This document shows positions 14,783 to 48,204 of a DNA stretch of 64,000 bases, one piece after another. The stretch spans positions 2,176,001-2,240,000 of the forward strand of contig CP084166.1 of NCBI GenBank assembly GCA_021513695.1. Reading direction: 5' to 3'. Position numbers and translations under genes: made by a program. The DNA comes from Candidatus Heimdallarchaeum aukensis (GTDB lineage: Archaea; Asgardarchaeota; Heimdallarchaeia; Heimdallarchaeales; Heimdallarchaeaceae). The notes below the pieces were generated by a model, which saw only the letters and a program-made list of their open reading frames with translations, was not told where the DNA came from and ran no database searches. How positions within the stretch are numbered: the stretch's first letter is position 1; every line of letters starts with the position of its first letter.

Positions 14783-17700
14783 ATGTTAGCTAATGTAGGG
14801 ATCAATATAGGTTCTGTGTCCGTAAATTTTGTTTTCGTAGACACAGATGGAACAATCCATAAATGTAAAAAACCTCATATGGGAAAACCACAAGAAGTAT
14901 TAACTGAAATTATTAAAGAGAATATTCCTGAAAGCAAAAAGTGCGCTTTTGCTACTTCTGGGTCTTTTGGTAACATATCAGAGATTGCAGCTATTGAGAG
15001 AGGGTTAAAATCATATCCTGATGAAAAATTTGATATTGTTTTATCTTTAGGTGGAGAATCTTTTGTTTTATATGTTATAGATGAGGAAAATAATATTGTT
15101 AATATTTTATCGCATGACAAGTGTGCTGCTGGTAGCGGAGAATTTTTCCTTCAACAGATAGGTAGGTTAGGTCTGTCCTTAAATGAGGCAATAGAACGAG
15201 CAAAAAATGGAAAAAAAATTCAGTTGGCCTCTCGCTGTTCAGTTCACTGTAAATCTGATATAACTCATAAGTTAAATAAGGGTGAAGCATCGATCGATGA
15301 TATCCTTACTTCTGTTTTATCAAGTATGGTGAATAAAGTCTTACATCTAATTATGCAATCGCGAGTGAACGTGAAAAGATTATTAGTAATTGGAGGAGTA
15401 ACTCTTAATGATACTTTTGTTCAACTATTAAGGGAGGAATTACCAGATGTTGATGTTGTAATCAAAGATGTAAGTAGTGTTTTTGAAGCATATGGAGCAT
15501 CATTAATGGTTAGTGATAATCCTCTATCATTTCCAAACAAACCTGTATTAAAAACAGAAAAAAGTTTTGCAACTCTTCCTCCATTAAAAGAATTTAGAGA
15601 GCAAGTAACAATCATAGAACCTAAACCTCCAAAAACAGATTTTGATGAATCGACAATATTTGTATTAGGTGTTGATGTTGGTTCTACGACAACAAAAGCC
15701 GTTTTAATGGATTATTCGGATAATGAAATTGTTGCTTCCTATTATGGTCGAACTCAAGGGAATCCAGTAAACGCGGCAAAGAAGTGTATTACAGAAATAA
15801 TAAAACAAGTCGGAAATCAAAGGGTACAGTTGATTGGTGTAACTGGCTCTGGCAGACAAATTGTTGGCGCTTATCTGGGCACTCCAGCTATATACAATGA
15901 GATATCAGCTCATTCAACAGGTGCAGTTCATTTTGATGATGAGGTTGATACAATTTTCGAGATTGGAGGACAAGATTCAAAATATATGCTAATTAAAAAT
16001 GGAGTTCCTATAGATTATGCGATGAATGCAAGTTGTTCTGCAGGAACAGGTTCCTTTTTAGAAGAATGCTCAAAAGGAGATCTAGGAATATCTGTTTATG
16101 ATATCGCTTCTGTAGCAATGCAAGCAGAAAACCCTGTTCGTTTTAAAGCTGATTGTGCTGCTTTCATAAATTCAGATATTCGTACTGCTCTTCAAGAGGG
16201 GTATAGCCGTACAGATATAGTAGGAGGTTTAGTTTACTCTATTGTAAATAATTATGTTGAAAAAGTTAAGGGGTCGCGAGAAGTAGGTAAAAAGATCTTC
16301 TTTCAAGGAGGAGTTGCTAAAAACACATCTGTGGGTTACGCATTTGCACAAGCAACTGGAAAACATATTATTATACCTCCAAATCCCGAATTGGTGGGAG
16401 CTTTTGGTGTTGCACTAATTGCAAAAGAGAAGTATGAACTTAATGAAATTGGATTAATGCCAGAAAATACTTCTCTTGAGCATCTTATAAAAGAAGAAAT
16501 GAAGCATCTTGGACATTTTATTTGTAAAGCTTGTAACAACTATTGTCAAATTGAGAGATATGAGGTGGGTGGTAGGCGCTTTCCATTTGGAGGACGATGT
16601 AGTAGGTATGAACACCAATGGCGTAGAACTGAAAAAATAAAAGAGAAAGAGGATTTAGTTCAAAAGAGAAATGACCTCATTTTTGAAAATGTTATAGAAG
16701 AGACAAAAACAAATACAAATACTGAGAAAATAGGTATACCTCGAGCATTGTTAACTCATAGCCTTTTCCCTCTTTATTCTACTTTCTTCAAAGAAATTGG
16801 TTTTGAAGTTGTTCTCTCATCCATTGATGAAGAAAAAGAATTGTTAACTAATGCTCCATTCTGTTATCCAGTTCAAATTTTACACGGAGCAGTAAATGAT
16901 CTAATCAAAAAGGGAATAAAATTAATATTTTTACCACATATCAGAAGTTTGCCAAAGAATAAATCCTGGTTTGATTCTACTTTCTGTCCAATAACACAAG
17001 GAAGCTCCTATTATATTCCTACAACGTTTTCTCCAGTTGAAATACTGAATCCAGTATTAGATTTTGAGGAAGGATACGAATACGATACTTCATTAGTTGA
17101 TTATGTCGTGAAAAAACTTGGTATACCAAAGTCCAAAGCTAATCGTGCCTATATACATGCCGTAAAAAAACAAAAAAAGGTTGAACAACAATTTATTGAG
17201 TGGGGAAAAGAAGCACTTAAGAAACTAGACGAAACAAATGAAACAGCTATAGTGCTAGTCGGAAGAAGTTATAATGCATTTCCACCTGAAACATCACAGC
17301 TGATTCCAAAAAAACTGGCAAGTATGGGTGTAACTGTTATTCCTTTCGATTTTCTTGAAAAAGTAGAAAGCGAAGAAGACATTCCTTGGTACTTCATCAA
17401 TTATATTAACATTGCTGCAGATCTTGTACAAAAGAAGAAAAACTTGTTTTTATTATATATTACAAACTTTAGTTGTACCATTGATGGATTTAATCAACAA
17501 CTAGTAAGAACAAAGATGAAATCTAAACCCTATTTGATATTAGAGTTAGATGCCCACACAGCTGATGCGGGAACACAAACTAGACTAGAAGCTTTTCTTG
17601 AGATAATTAAAAATTATCGGGCTGTAGAAAAGCAAGAAGAAGAAAAAGAGTTTAAAGTTTGTCAAGTCAAAAGAAGAAATGGAAAAACTGTTGTTTTCAC

Positions 17701-18970
17701 TTCAAAAGGTGAAATGTTAAGCATTAGAGACCCAAGAGTAAAACTTTATTTTCCAAGTTTTTCAAAATACCATACTGATGCTTTAAGTAAAGTCTTTAGT
17801 CTCCTAGGTTATAATACAGGTAAAGTTACAGATATTAGACTAGATTATCCTGTAACTGGATTACAGTACAGTTCTGGAAAAGAATGCATACCTCTGGCGG
17901 TTGTTTTAGGACATATTTTGCATTTAGTTAAACAAAGAAAGCCAGGAGAAGTAATAGGCTATTATATGATCAGAGGTGGGTCACCTTGTGCTGTTTATAG
18001 TTACTTCCATTATATTGAGCGATTTCTGAAAGAAAATAAGATAGAAGATGTATTTGTTTTCAGATTTGACTACCTTACAAACTTTATGGATACTAGTTTA
18101 TTGGATGTCATGCGTTACTTTCCACAAACACTCATAATTGCTGATTTGATGAATGAGATAGAAAGTGCTCTTCATGTGGTAGGGGATGAGAAAGGTTTAG
18201 AACAATTACATAGTTATTGGAAAGAATATCTAACAGAAGCCAATACGTTAAAGAAATACAAAAAACTTGTTCCTAAACTAGTGGAAAAAATAGCCAGTAT
18301 TGAACGCAAGGGAGATCCTAAAACTTATTCAAAAGTACTAATAAGTGGAGATTTTTATGTTCGTTTTAGTCCATTTTTCATTGGAGAACTAAGGGATATG
18401 TATAAAGTACATGACATTATTGTGAAATCGCATGATCTGTGGGAACTTGTTCTTTATAGTGTTTACAGCACAAAAATAGCTATTGCACAACGATGGAAAA
18501 AAGGTCCAAATAAATTTTCAACCTTAATATATGCATTTTCGAAAATATTTGACAAAAGGGCGCAAACTTATCTTCTCTGCATTTTCTCTATTCCACTACT
18601 TGAATGGATTGAAAAGAGACAACGAAAGGCATTTAGAAAAACGGGTTTACTATACGCTGGTGTTAATAAATTAAAACCCATTTTCCGCTTCTCGAAACCA
18701 TATATCAGTCCATTAATTGTCGGAGAAGCAATACCTACTGTAGGAAAAGGAATCGAAACATTAACACATAATGGGTATGATTCTTTAATTTTAACAGGTC
18801 CAATGAATTGTTTGCCTTATAAAGTCTCTCAAGCAATATTAAAGCCAATATTTCTGGAGAACAGAGTACCTTTCTTAGTCTTTGATGTGGACATCTCTTC
18901 TATGTCAACAAACATGAAACGTTTAGTGCATGCAAATATAGAACAGATAAAAAAGAGAAATATAAATTAG
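14783..18970 (+). CDS. Giant fusion protein: two BadF/BadG/BcrA/BcrD-type ATPase (HgdC-like activase) domains plus a 2-hydroxyacyl-CoA dehydratase-like (HgdB/DUF2229-like) C-terminal module
   Basis: The 1395-aa ORF has a first ATPase domain (GINIGSVSVNFVFVD...DKCAAGSGEFF) and a second (LGVDVGSTTTKAVL...SCSAGTGSFLEE...FFQGGVAKN), then a Cys cluster (CKACNNYCQ...GGRCSRYE). The long C-terminal region has dehydratase-component-like topology. Confidence 0.6.
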   Translation: MLANVGINIGSVSVNFVFVDTDGTIHKCKKPHMGKPQEVLTEIIKENIPESKKCAFATSGSFGNISEIAAIERGLKSYPDEKFDIVLSLGGESFVLYVIDEENNIVNILSHDKCAAGSGEFFLQQIGRLGLSLNEAIERAKNGKKIQLASRCSVHCKSDITHKLNKGEASIDDILTSVLSSMVNKVLHLIMQSRVNVKRLLVIGGVTLNDTFVQLLREELPDVDVVIKDVSSVFEAYGASLMVSDNPLSFPNKPVLKTEKSFATLPPLKEFREQVTIIEPKPPKTDFDESTIFVLGVDVGSTTTKAVLMDYSDNEIVASYYGRTQGNPVNAAKKCITEIIKQVGNQRVQLIGVTGSGRQIVGAYLGTPAIYNEISAHSTGAVHFDDEVDTIFEIGGQDSKYMLIKNGVPIDYAMNASCSAGTGSFLEECSKGDLGISVYDIASVAMQAENPVRFKADCAAFINSDIRTALQEGYSRTDIVGGLVYSIVNNYVEKVKGSREVGKKIFFQGGVAKNTSVGYAFAQATGKHIIIPPNPELVGAFGVALIAKEKYELNEIGLMPENTSLEHLIKEEMKHLGHFICKACNNYCQIERYEVGGRRFPFGGRCSRYEHQWRRTEKIKEKEDLVQKRNDLIFENVIEETKTNTNTEKIGIPRALLTHSLFPLYSTFFKEIGFEVVLSSIDEEKELLTNAPFCYPVQILHGAVNDLIKKGIKLIFLPHIRSLPKNKSWFDSTFCPITQGSSYYIPTTFSPVEILNPVLDFEEGYEYDTSLVDYVVKKLGIPKSKANRAYIHAVKKQKKVEQQFIEWGKEALKKLDETNETAIVLVGRSYNAFPPETSQLIPKKLASMGVTVIPFDFLEKVESEEDIPWYFINYINIAADLVQKKKNLFLLYITNFSCTIDGFNQQLVRTKMKSKPYLILELDAHTADAGTQTRLEAFLEIIKNYRAVEKQEEEKEFKVCQVKRRNGKTVVFTSKGEMLSIRDPRVKLYFPSFSKYHTDALSKVFSLLGYNTGKVTDIRLDYPVTGLQYSSGKECIPLAVVLGHILHLVKQRKPGEVIGYYMIRGGSPCAVYSYFHYIERFLKENKIEDVFVFRFDYLTNFMDTSLLDVMRYFPQTLIIADLMNEIESALHVVGDEKGLEQLHSYWKEYLTEANTLKKYKKLVPKLVEKIASIERKGDPKTYSKVLISGDFYVRFSPFFIGELRDMYKVHDIIVKSHDLWELVLYSVYSTKIAIAQRWKKGPNKFSTLIYAFSKIFDKRAQTYLLCIFSIPLLEWIEKRQRKAFRKTGLLYAGVNKLKPIFRFSKPYISPLIVGEAIPTVGKGIETLTHNGYDSLILTGPMNCLPYKVSQAILKPIFLENRVPFLVFDVDISSMSTNMKRLVHANIEQIKKRNIN

Positions 18971-19189
18971 TTTACTCTTTTAAAGAAGAAGGTTCCTTTT
19001 TTTCATTTTTTTTAACGAATTGCATAATATACTTTTTTACGCCAAAAGCTAAACTTTTTAGTTAGTGGATGTATTAGGCCAATAGCAGGCCAAAAGCACA
19101 TTTGAATGAATAAAAAATACATTGAATATTGGGTGAGTGGCACAACTTTTCCGCGGTTTTTATATACACAATTCTCATTTATCTGTTGT

Positions 19190-19316
19190 CTTGAGCTAGA
19201 TGCTTAAAGACGTAGGTTATCTGTCCTACGACACCCGGTCTTCCCTCTGGGAGTGATGAGTGTCCGGGATCAGGAGATGAAGCCGTTAGGGAATACTATT
19301 ACAGACTGTGTCTTTG
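19190..19316. ncRNA. Candidate structured ncRNA: a GC-rich island in an AT-rich convergent intergenic region, preceded by a TATA-like box
   Basis: A TTTTATATA box at about 19158-19167 lies about 25 bp upstream. The segment is locally above 50% GC, with hairpins CGTAGG...CCTACG and CCCGG...CCGGG. It has no coding potential. The strand is unresolved. Confidence 0.25.
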
Positions 19317-19407
19317 TGTTCTCTTAGCCCAGTCCTCACAAATATCTAAATGTTTGTTGACTGGTCGGGTAGAGTCCTGAAGAAATTACGTAAAATTTCA
19401 ACTCATA
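19317..19407. repeat. Copy 1 of a duplicated ~90-nt noncoding element (the second copy is at 47893-47980)
   Basis: tgttctcttaGCCCAGTCCTCACAA...GGGTAGAGTCCTGAAGAAAtTACgTAAAATTTCAACTCATA is about 80% identical to 47893-47980 across about 90 nt. Indels break any shared reading frame. Confidence 0.5.
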
Positions 19408-24202: not shown

Positions 24203-24320
24203 GCCGCGATAGCTTAGTCGGTAGAGCATTCGGCTGTTAATCTTAAGATTTGAATGCACTACGGGTGCGCAAGAGCAGCGCACCGAAAGGTCGTAGGTTC
24301 GAGTCCTACTCGCGGCGCCA
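24203..24320 (+). tRNA. tRNA-Asn(GUU) with a canonical 37/38 intron of about 42 nt and encoded CCA
   Basis: Acceptor GCCGCGA/TCGCGGC, D-arm GCTT-AGTCGGTA-GAGC, anticodon stem TTCGG/CCGAA, loop CTGTTA|intron|A, T-arm GTAGG-TTCGAGT-CCTAC, then G-CCA. Confidence 0.75.
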
Positions 24321-28749: not shown

Positions 28750-28859
28750 TGGTGGACTGGGGGGGATTTTCAGATTCAGCGCACACAGCGCCGGAAAATC
28801 TATTGAACCCCCGGCCTCTTCGGTGCAAGCGAAGCGTTCTTCCTCTGAACTACCAGCCC
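28750..28859 (-). tRNA. tRNA-Ala(UGC) with the G3:U70 identity pair, a roughly 35-nt intron in the T-loop and encoded CCA
   Basis: Reverse complement: GGGCTGG-TA-GTTC-AGAGGAA-GAAC-G-CTTCG-CTTGCAC-CGAAG-AGGCC-GGGGG-TTCAA[TAGATTTTCCGGCGCTGTGTGCGCTGAATCTGAAA]AT-CCCCC-CCAGTCC-A-CCA. G3 pairs with T70. Confidence 0.7.
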
Positions 28860-29236
28860 ACGCCTTGTTTTTGTTTTCTATTCTTTAAACACTTTGTGTT
28901 AATTATCTTTTTTTTGTTCCTTTTTTTAAACTTTCGATTTGTAGCATCAATTTGATTTTTGTACTTTTTTTGAATACAATGCTCGCACTTGGATGAGTTC
29001 AGAGGAAAAAAATACCTATTATTGAGCAAGAGGTAATGATTGAGTTCTTCTTGACAACAGAAATCAGAAACAATTGGTGTTTCTTCTAATATAGGAAAGG
29101 AAGATGAGAAGTTTGAGAATTAAAGAGTGGAAGCGAGTTTTTTTATTTTTTAAAAGAAATACTATGAGGTTGTCAAGTCATTGATAGCCTTAAACCAACA
29201 TTTTTTGATTCTTTTTCTTATTAGTCTTATTATTTT

Positions 29237-30256: not shown

Positions 30257-30377
30257 TGGAGCCCTGGGCGTGATTTGAACACGCGACAACTGGATTGCTG
30301 CACAAGTGCTGAAACAATTTAGTTTTTCAGCGTTTTTGGTTCTTCAGTCCAGCGCTCTCCCGCTAAGCTACCAGGGC
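30257..30377 (-). tRNA. tRNA-Phe(GAA) with a roughly 46-nt intron at 37/38 and encoded CCA
   Basis: Reverse complement: GCCCTGG-TA-GCTT-AGCGGGA-GAGC-G-CTGGA-CTGAAG[intron]A-TCCAG-TTGTC-GCGTG-TTCAAAT-CACGC-CCAGGGC-T-CCA. Confidence 0.75.
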
Positions 30378-47788: not shown

Positions 47789-47892
47789 CCTCTTTTTTTA
47801 CTCTTTTATTTTGATAATTTAAATATAATTCCTTTATTCGAATTGTTTTTTTCTCTTACTACAAAAGAAAAAAGTAGTTATAATGTTTACAT

Positions 47893-47980
47893 GTTCTCTT
47901 AATTCAGTCCTCACAATCGTATCGATGTGTTGGCTGGTTGGGTAGAGTCCTGAAGAAACTACTTAAAATTTCAACTCATA
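47893..47980. repeat. Copy 2 of the duplicated ~90-nt noncoding element (see 19317-19407)
   Basis: About 80% identity to 19317-19407. It lies about 60 bp upstream of the small tail-anchored protein gene. Confidence 0.5.
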
Positions 47981-48042
47981 GTGTAGCTCAAGACAGCATC
48001 TCAGAAAAAAGTTTTTGTATTTCAGTGTATTTGCTAACAATA

Positions 48043-48204
48043 ATGAGTGACGATAAGATTAATGAAGAAAAACTTGAGGACGAAAAAATAGATGATGAAG
48101 AAGAATATGTTGGTAGAGACTGGAATAAAATTTTGATGGGCGTCTTATTTGTCTTTGCTGCGACTGTAACCTGGTATGTTATTCAAGCAATTCTTGGAAA
48201 TTAA
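48043..48204 (+). CDS. Small tail-anchored membrane protein (acidic N-terminus plus a single C-terminal TM), possibly Sec61beta/SecG-like
   Basis: MSDDKINEEKLEDEKIDDEEEYVGRDWNKILMGVLFVFAATVTWYVIQAILGN. The start is taken at the internal ATG because the upstream part of the tracked ORF overlaps the repeat element. Confidence 0.3.
   Translation: MSDDKINEEKLEDEKIDDEEEYVGRDWNKILMGVLFVFAATVTWYVIQAILGN

Follow-up and report, generated by a model that had tools for sequence, protein, structure and literature searches.

The locus described here raises the question of why a stretch of noncoding DNA should occur twice in one archaeal genome, in similar but not identical form. The host, Candidatus Heimdallarchaeum aukensis, is an archaeon of 32% G+C with intron-bearing tRNA genes. 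It belongs to the Heimdallarchaeia, a group that ranks among the archaea most closely related to eukaryotes; accounts of its mobilome have dealt mainly with proteins. A preliminary description of the window, by which we mean the whole 64-kb stretch of DNA that was analysed, reported the repeat as a unit of about 90 nt. It left the nature of that unit undecided between a small RNA family, a miniature mobile repeat and a remnant of a tRNA-targeting integrative element.

Pairwise alignment confirmed an identity of about 80% between the two segments over approximately 92 nt, with indels, and the window contains two occurrences of an exact 19-mer, GGGTAGAGTCCTGAAGAAA, where 0.02 would be expected. 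The family to which the segments belong is the sole genuine dispersed repeat of the window. The genomic contexts were also described correctly. The first segment (copy 1) lies in a convergent intergenic region between ORFs ending at 18970 and 19544. The second (copy 2), located after cysS, lies 63 nt upstream of a 53-aa ORF (ATG at 48043) and is partly covered by the mechanically called ORF 47938-48204. The unit size and boundaries, on the other hand, had to be revised. When loci of Ca. Heimdallarchaeum endolithica PR6 are aligned, similarity to copy 1 runs about 300 nt farther upstream and comes to a sharp stop at ...CAACTCAT; the segment first noticed makes up only the last quarter, on the 3′ side, of an element of 384 nt (19023-19406). 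The profile built from the complete unit fits this stretch over its whole length (profile positions 1-380, E = 3e-118), and fits 47888-47979 at profile positions 287-380 only (E = 1.4e-22). Judged by sequence, the first of these is an intact copy and the second a 5′-truncated, 92-nt relic of the same family. The relic is 81% identical to copy 1 and 78-85% identical to copies in other genomes; because it is no closer to copy 1 than to those, it derives from a separate insertion. The same fragment is found in other assemblies of the window's organism, and at the orthologous site the contigs of relatives begin at the small gene or are without synteny. An internal direct repeat, AGTCCTCA/AGTCCTGA, to which attention had been drawn at first, is lost in most other copies, which have AGTCTTCA instead.

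The family was recovered by means of an invariant 18-mer, GGGTAGAGTCCTGAAGAA. The preliminary description had named the existence of only these two copies as a finding that would speak against its proposals; instead, many were obtained. We found 14 copies of 342-384 nt, all of them protein-less and all in Heimdallarchaeaceae. They include at least seven in the complete genome of Ca. Heimdallarchaeum endolithica PR6 (counted as exact sites of the invariant 18-mer), five further full copies from metagenomes, and two more, one in a MAG and one on a short contig. No ORF is conserved between any of the 14 copies. Pairwise identity between copies is 88% in a module at the right end, 64% in the spacer and 23% in the flanks. 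Among viral and MGE contigs, two invariant blocks gave 0 matches and a 16-mer gave 70 chance matches, none fitting the profile, and BLASTN of plasmid and phage collections gave no match to the element. The family is not described in the account of the Heimdallarchaeum genome (PMC8813620), in the 2024 study of Asgard mobile elements (PMC11529989) or in the 2026 survey of archaeal IS (PMC13343696). The copy at L104 5875-6216 (Heimdallarchaeaceae MAG GCA_054384295.1) has a 36-nt internal deletion that takes away the P6 helix and an inner hairpin, and from its sequence it is probably a dead copy.

Evidence on the nature of the repeat comes from what is left when a copy is removed. In locus L012 of PR6, the element sits seven nucleotides inside an IS200/IS605 tnpA; its deletion, with one CAT kept, restores a 132-aa TnpA ORF (MPSGYDANLTNVHFIGYHFVWCPKYRRK...) that matches Pfam Y1_Tnp at 1e-38. 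Once the copy in L011 is deleted, two ORF fragments become one TauE/SafE protein of 309 aa, which shows a single-stretch match across the junction (6e-43). At the site of copy 1, relatives with a 93% identical flanking protein have an intergenic region of 181 nt, compared to 573 nt in the window. Removing copy 1 in silico makes the intergenic regions of the window and the relatives collinear, meaning that the relatives carry an empty site. Contigs assembled from short reads of the window's organism break at the repeat, which was also the sole outcome of strain-level look-ups with exact proteins. With at least 14 copies, two ORF-restoring removals and one empty orthologous site, the option of a miniature mobile repeat has proved correct, and we have very little doubt that the family consists of non-autonomous transposable elements of about 365-385 nt.

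We also see nested insertions in L012 (3600-5960, minus strand of PR6), where the element lies within tnpA of an IS200/IS605 (tnpA 132 aa, tnpB 403 aa) that in turn splits a MazG-like ORF (...FRDER / DWKKYHTPKNL...). The 9-mer AGACGAGAG is present on both sides of this IS, which is unusual, as the IS200/IS605 family is said to produce no target duplication.

These observations bear directly on two explanations that do not involve an element of this kind. The first is that the copies form a non-mobile host small-RNA gene family, or that they are the shared 5′ UTR of paralogues, as the position of copy 2, 63 nt upstream of a small ORF, might suggest. A different gene lies downstream of every copy, and these genes are unrelated to one another, ruling out the shared UTR that had been considered at the outset. 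Copy 2 itself lacks the putative promoter and more than half of the fold described below, so that a full fold is impossible there. The two ORF-interrupting copies and the empty orthologous site in relatives refute a non-mobile family, to which we assign only a very small probability. The second explanation, a remnant of a tRNA-targeting integrative element or a tRNA-derived SINE, had its origin solely in a visual impression of a D-arm in the stretch GGGTAGAG. Neither ARAGORN nor Rfam (RF00005) finds a tRNA at either copy, no copy abuts a tRNA gene at its insertion site, and the flanks are unrelated. In the consensus fold, the partners of GGGTAGAG are ACCC and AGGA, within long-range helices. 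A tRNA origin is improbable in the extreme, and we have abandoned this part of the preliminary description.

What, then, is the organisation of the mobile unit? From left to right, the element comprises a left terminus of 26 nt, a variable spacer, a TATA-like box and a module of 207-219 nt whose end coincides exactly with that of the element (Table 1). The left terminus contains a degenerate form of the palindrome TTACGTAA and a T6 tract. The TATA-like box is situated about 26 nt upstream of the module start, in a putative promoter region that is 78% identical between copies; for comparison, tRNA genes in the window have boxes of the TTTAAA/TTTAAG type.

Table 1. Positions in the window of the element, its parts and the truncated second copy.
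Feature	Position	Strand	Basis
Full-length element, 384 nt	19023..19406	+	Profile match; alignments with 11 other copies; empty site in relatives
Left terminus, CAT-AATATAC-TTTTTTACG..AAAAG	19023..19048	+	First ~26 nt 78% identical, spacer 64%
Second left-end palindrome, AGCTAAA..TTTAGTT, with T5 tract	19047..19063	+	Major subfamily only
TATA-like box TTTTTATATA (TTTATATA), putative internal promoter	19157..19166	+	Conserved in 10/12 copies
Structured module, putative RNA, 219 nt, 10 helices	19188..19406	+	Mean column identity 91%, pairwise 88%
Loop AUGAGU, complement of the 3′ tail ACUCAU	19256..19261	+	Paired in MFE
Variable hairpin P7, conserved base CCAGUC/GACUGG	19329..19364	+	Per-copy folds, compensatory pairs
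Invariant 18-mer GGGTAGAGTCCTGAAGAA, 3′ strands of long-range helices P5 and P4	19367..19384	+	Identical in all copies
Right subterminal palindrome/hairpin, GAAATT-ACGTAA-AATTTC	19382..19399	+	Consensus helix 196-213
Right terminus AACTCAT, sharp end of all copies	19400..19406	+	
Copy 2 relic: P6 3′ strand, P7, invariant 18-mer, right palindrome, terminus	47888..47979	+	

The junctions were compared between copies. The left junction is CAT in 10 of 11 copies and GAT in the remaining one, with a left flank that ends in (C/A)CAT; at the right junction all copies have CAT, the end of the element being CTCAT. The dinucleotide AT is common to both junctions in 12/12 copies. Insertions always have one orientation relative to the (C)AT at both junctions, and beyond it the flanks are unrelated and A/T-rich. 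The first CAT of copy 1 (19023-19025) may be target-derived. With (C/A)CAT on the left and TCAT on the right, the junctions fit TAM/TEM motifs, a 2-3-bp duplication or a crossover core alike, even with empty sites at hand. The transposition chemistry could be that of a Y1 transposase with TAM/TEM, of a serine recombinase with an AT core, or one that leaves a 2-3-bp duplication. An element bounded by AT...AT and inserted without duplication was rejected, as it would leave tnpA of L012 out of frame.

Closer to the termini, the palindrome TTACGTAA is found at the same distance of 16 bp from the shared AT at both ends. A TIR-like match, ATGA..T....TTTTACGTAA, is weak (up to 16/23 positions), and a classical TIR/TSD MITE was rejected for this reason. 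Modelled as ssDNA, the subterminal palindromes TTTTTTACGTAAAAAA and GAAATTACGTAAAATTTC give folds of -0.5 to -4.9 kcal/mol (z -1.6 to +0.8), and the right subterminal palindrome is weak, at -2.6 kcal/mol with z ~0. The A/T-only terminal palindromes fold no better than shuffles, and the left one is degenerate in several copies. At the right junctions of L005, L011 and L014, the terminal ...CAT together with a flanking G makes an ATG, which in L005 (1483-1755) starts a 90-aa ORF; the creation of this ATG in three copies is probably coincidental.

The right-end module was then considered as a putative RNA. The consensus fold has 57 pairs in 10 helices, with 98% of cells paired, compared to 33-51% when the partners are slid. 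Three hairpins lie in its 5′ part; they are followed by a multi-branch domain, which AGGA/UCCU and ACCC/GGGU close, and on the 3′ side by a further hairpin, 7 nt short of the boundary. On the + strand the predicted MFE is -70.9 kcal/mol (z = -3.30, 0/200 shuffles), as against z = -1.50 on the - strand, and the presence of several G-U pairs also favours the + strand. The P7 hairpin is paired in 13/13 copies, including copy 2, at -5.6 to -14.3 kcal/mol, and its apical stem varies in sequence and length between subfamilies. The examination of covariation that had been suggested for the repeat gave a mixed answer: double changes are seen in two pairs (columns 146/175 and 151/170), but covariation is weak overall, since most pairs are invariant, and there is too little variation to prove the fold. 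The loop AUGAGU (19256-19261) and the tail ACUCAU (19401-19406) may form a pseudoknot beside a putative guide. The 6 bp are kept in 10/12 copies, with no covariation and a chance expectation of about 7%.

In 12/12 copies the module has 0 tracts of five or more T, and T5-T6 is confined to the left 40 nt and the vicinity of the TATA-like box. This absence is only weakly informative, as about 0.5 tracts are expected per copy and the copies are related; the layout nevertheless fits an insulated transcript that would be free to run into the flank. Rfam, which holds few omega RNA models, gave no family match to the element at gathering or permissive thresholds; a hit of Ocean-VII at 19257-19306 scored 18.5 bits against a cutoff of 53.5 and was taken as chance. 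A C/D-box sRNA was also rejected, as GUGAUGA is present in only 3/12 copies (UUAUGA in most) and no Rfam snoRNA match rises above noise. The conserved C/D (RUGAUGA/CUGA) or ACA boxes with a K-turn that mark archaeal C/D-box or H/ACA sRNAs were not found. Overall, we somewhat favour the view that the module is a functional RNA. As far as the conserved 3′ module is concerned, a small RNA family, as suggested earlier, is a plausible reading, given the strand-specific fold, the kept hairpin and the TATA-like box.

A simpler possibility is that we are dealing with a plain non-autonomous transposon, in which the right 220 nt are cis-acting DNA, providing binding sites or a ssDNA fold for a transposase or recombinase that acts in trans, and the TATA-like box is incidental. 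Mobility is solid in any case, and the placement of TTACGTAA 16 bp from the shared AT at both ends, together with the weak TIR-like match, suggests a dimeric DNA-binding protein. A functional ssDNA fold would moreover keep G-T wobbles and compensatory changes just as an RNA would. However, the sites recognised by known transposases extend over tens of nucleotides, not over some 220 nt at 88% identity with 10 helices, and the left end, which would also need to be recognised, keeps just ~26 nt. The TATA-like box at a fixed distance and the missing terminator tracts fit transcription. We regard a purely cis-acting role as unlikely.

If the module is indeed an RNA, its position is informative. A structured RNA at the right end, directed outwards and stopping at the boundary, in a TIR-less element that inserts beside a short motif, is the signature of the omega RNA/reRNA of IS200/IS605 and IS607 elements. 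Our preferred reading is that this is a PATE-type element whose RNA would serve as an omega-RNA-like guide for a TnpB acting in trans. It is the best explanation overall, and we give it a probability of roughly 40%. Under this reading, a transposase encoded elsewhere would move the element in trans, and an internal TATA-type promoter would transcribe the right module rightwards into a structured RNA. This RNA, which has no oligo-T terminator, would run into flanking DNA, so that its 3′ extension would copy the flank. A TnpB-type nuclease would be loaded with the RNA in trans and, after excision of the element, would cut the empty site consisting of (C)AT plus flank, whereupon recombination would restore the element. 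Selection for such a guide role would account for the RNA module being conserved more strongly than any other part. The carriage of an omega-RNA-type guide for use in trans, argued here by analogy, is put forward only tentatively.

A partner was sought in several ways. Two TnpB genes were found in PR6, a full-length one in L012 and a partial one in L006, and the right ends of these two loci show no similarity to the element. Apart from the unrelated IS that is interrupted in L012, a linked tnpB, iscB or transposase was present at 0/14 copies, and tblastn of the PR6 TnpA and TnpB against the window gave no match. A 33-codon frame runs across the module and is broken in about half of the copies. 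Among 5.8 billion protein clusters and 1.84 billion representatives, none has a C-terminus that matches this frame, and no autonomous relative came to light in this way. Word-indexed protein matches were limited to two tiny spurious ORFs from other copies, and a full HMMER search of the 1.84 billion representatives yielded a further spurious ORF as well as a repetitive protein of 2135 aa that matched by chance.

An RNA that is unconnected with TnpB must also be weighed. Such a mobile element could carry a regulatory or antisense sRNA, an outward promoter by which adjacent genes are activated or silenced, a new ribozyme or, for its own insertion, a recombinase guide resembling a bridge RNA. The evidence for a structured RNA applies equally here, and no link to a nuclease was found. 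Several copies face a neighbouring gene and would read into it, in sense or antisense, and the conserved loop, as the complement of the terminal ACUCAU of the element itself, might serve to recognise the donor end. Yet the neighbouring genes are unrelated, which leaves no common regulatory target, and Rfam gives no ribozyme match. The loop-tail complementarity has a chance expectation of ~7% and is not accompanied by covariation, and the flanks share (C)AT only, not a long target as for IS110-type bridge RNAs. We consider roles of this sort doubtful. Another reading would see the element as an 'RNA-only' selfish gene, that is, a mobile guide-RNA cassette that has its own promoter, lacks a linked protein and would survive by hijacking an RNA-guided nuclease or recombinase of the Asgard host or of other IS elements. 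Its scaffold may then belong to a class that is non-homologous to known omega, tracr or bridge RNAs. This is a rather improbable proposal; if true, a partner protein and a programmable activity remain to be found in the archaeal lineage closest to eukaryotes.

To place the element among known systems, its features were compared with those of several mobile element types. PATEs, or palindrome-associated transposable elements, are protein-less IS200/IS605 derivatives, many of them with an omega RNA (Dyall-Smith et al. 2011, PMC3119063; Meers et al. 2023, PMC10055086), and they 'often encode omega RNAs' that TnpB must use in trans (Meers et al. 2023, PMC10055086). The element resembles them in its size of a few hundred nucleotides, its lack of ORFs and its presence in multiple copies. 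It shares with them defined left and right ends with subterminal palindromes and no long TIRs. It likewise has a single orientation beside a short motif, with a similar motif at the right end ((C)AT and TCAT, TAM/TEM-like), and a conserved, structured, RNA-like module at the right end that points outwards. It differs in having no sequence homology to any known IS200/IS605 end. Its palindromes consist of A/T alone and are unstable as ssDNA; the hairpins of the genuine IS605 in L012, by contrast, are rich in GC. A further difference is that its module has a putative TATA-like promoter of its own, and the window and ~56 kb of PR6 loci yielded no cognate tnpA/tnpB element whose ends match. Ends shared with an IS200/IS605 element were thus not observed in these data, and those of the L012 IS605 are unrelated.

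The likeness to the omega RNA or reRNA of TnpB lies in the right-end position, the putative outward orientation and a scaffold of ~200 nt with a multi-helix fold. It extends to a terminal hairpin placed a few nucleotides ahead of the boundary, to the lack of a terminator ahead of the flank, and to a possible pseudoknot with the last nucleotides. In contrast to such RNAs, the module adjoins or overlaps no tnpB in 14 copies and has no detectable relic of a TnpB C-terminus.

IS607 elements, which carry TnpB and an omega RNA at the right end and have a serine-recombinase TnpA, offer another comparison. Here too there is no TIR, and the dinucleotide at the two junctions is identical (AT in this element, 12/12 copies), a feature that is not unique to IS607. 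IS607 elements prefer GG-type cores, and no serine recombinase partner was identified for the element. Archaeal MITEs, such as the Sulfolobus SM elements derived from IS with DDE transposases, are similarly small, non-coding, multi-copy and mobilised in trans, but MITEs have clear TIRs and variable TSDs, while the TIR-like match of the element is weak and its (C)AT is invariant and non-palindromic. No MITE is known to retain a structured module of 220 nt. The bridge RNAs of IS110/IS1111 are structured RNAs inside TIR-less elements with a short core at both junctions, as is the case here. However, the target specified by a bridge RNA is long and its recombinase gene lies alongside, whereas the element's flanks share (C)AT only and no recombinase is linked; an IS110 bridge-RNA reading was rejected as there is no long conserved target at the insertion flanks. 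By analogy, the element would appear to work most like a PATE carrying an omega RNA, and to represent a new family within a known kind of element.

If this holds true, the family would be a naturally occurring case in which guide RNA and nuclease have become separated. It would also give a handle on which Asgard TnpB-type (Fanzor-related) enzyme it served and which adjacent motif was used. As the family disrupts genes and breaks short-read assemblies, its annotation improves the curation of Asgard genomes.

Some observations were made on the surroundings of the two copies. Two tRNA genes of the window (24203-24317 and 30260-30377) have introns of ~43 nt and are found by Rfam and missed by ARAGORN; a tRNA-Ala at 28786-28860 is called by ARAGORN and is absent from the Rfam gathering list. 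The account of the Heimdallarchaeum genomes (PMC8813620) reports that existing models predict no 5S rRNA gene in them. Directly upstream of copy 1, positions 14783-18970 encode a 1395-aa fusion of a BcrAD/BadFG ATPase, DUF2229 and HGD-D, resembling an activase plus a dehydratase. The 53-aa protein encoded downstream of copy 2 (48043-48204) is acidic, with a C-terminal hydrophobic segment, and is identical on 8 contigs from several samples; the order of its gene and the following 230-aa gene is kept at a locus that is 91% related.
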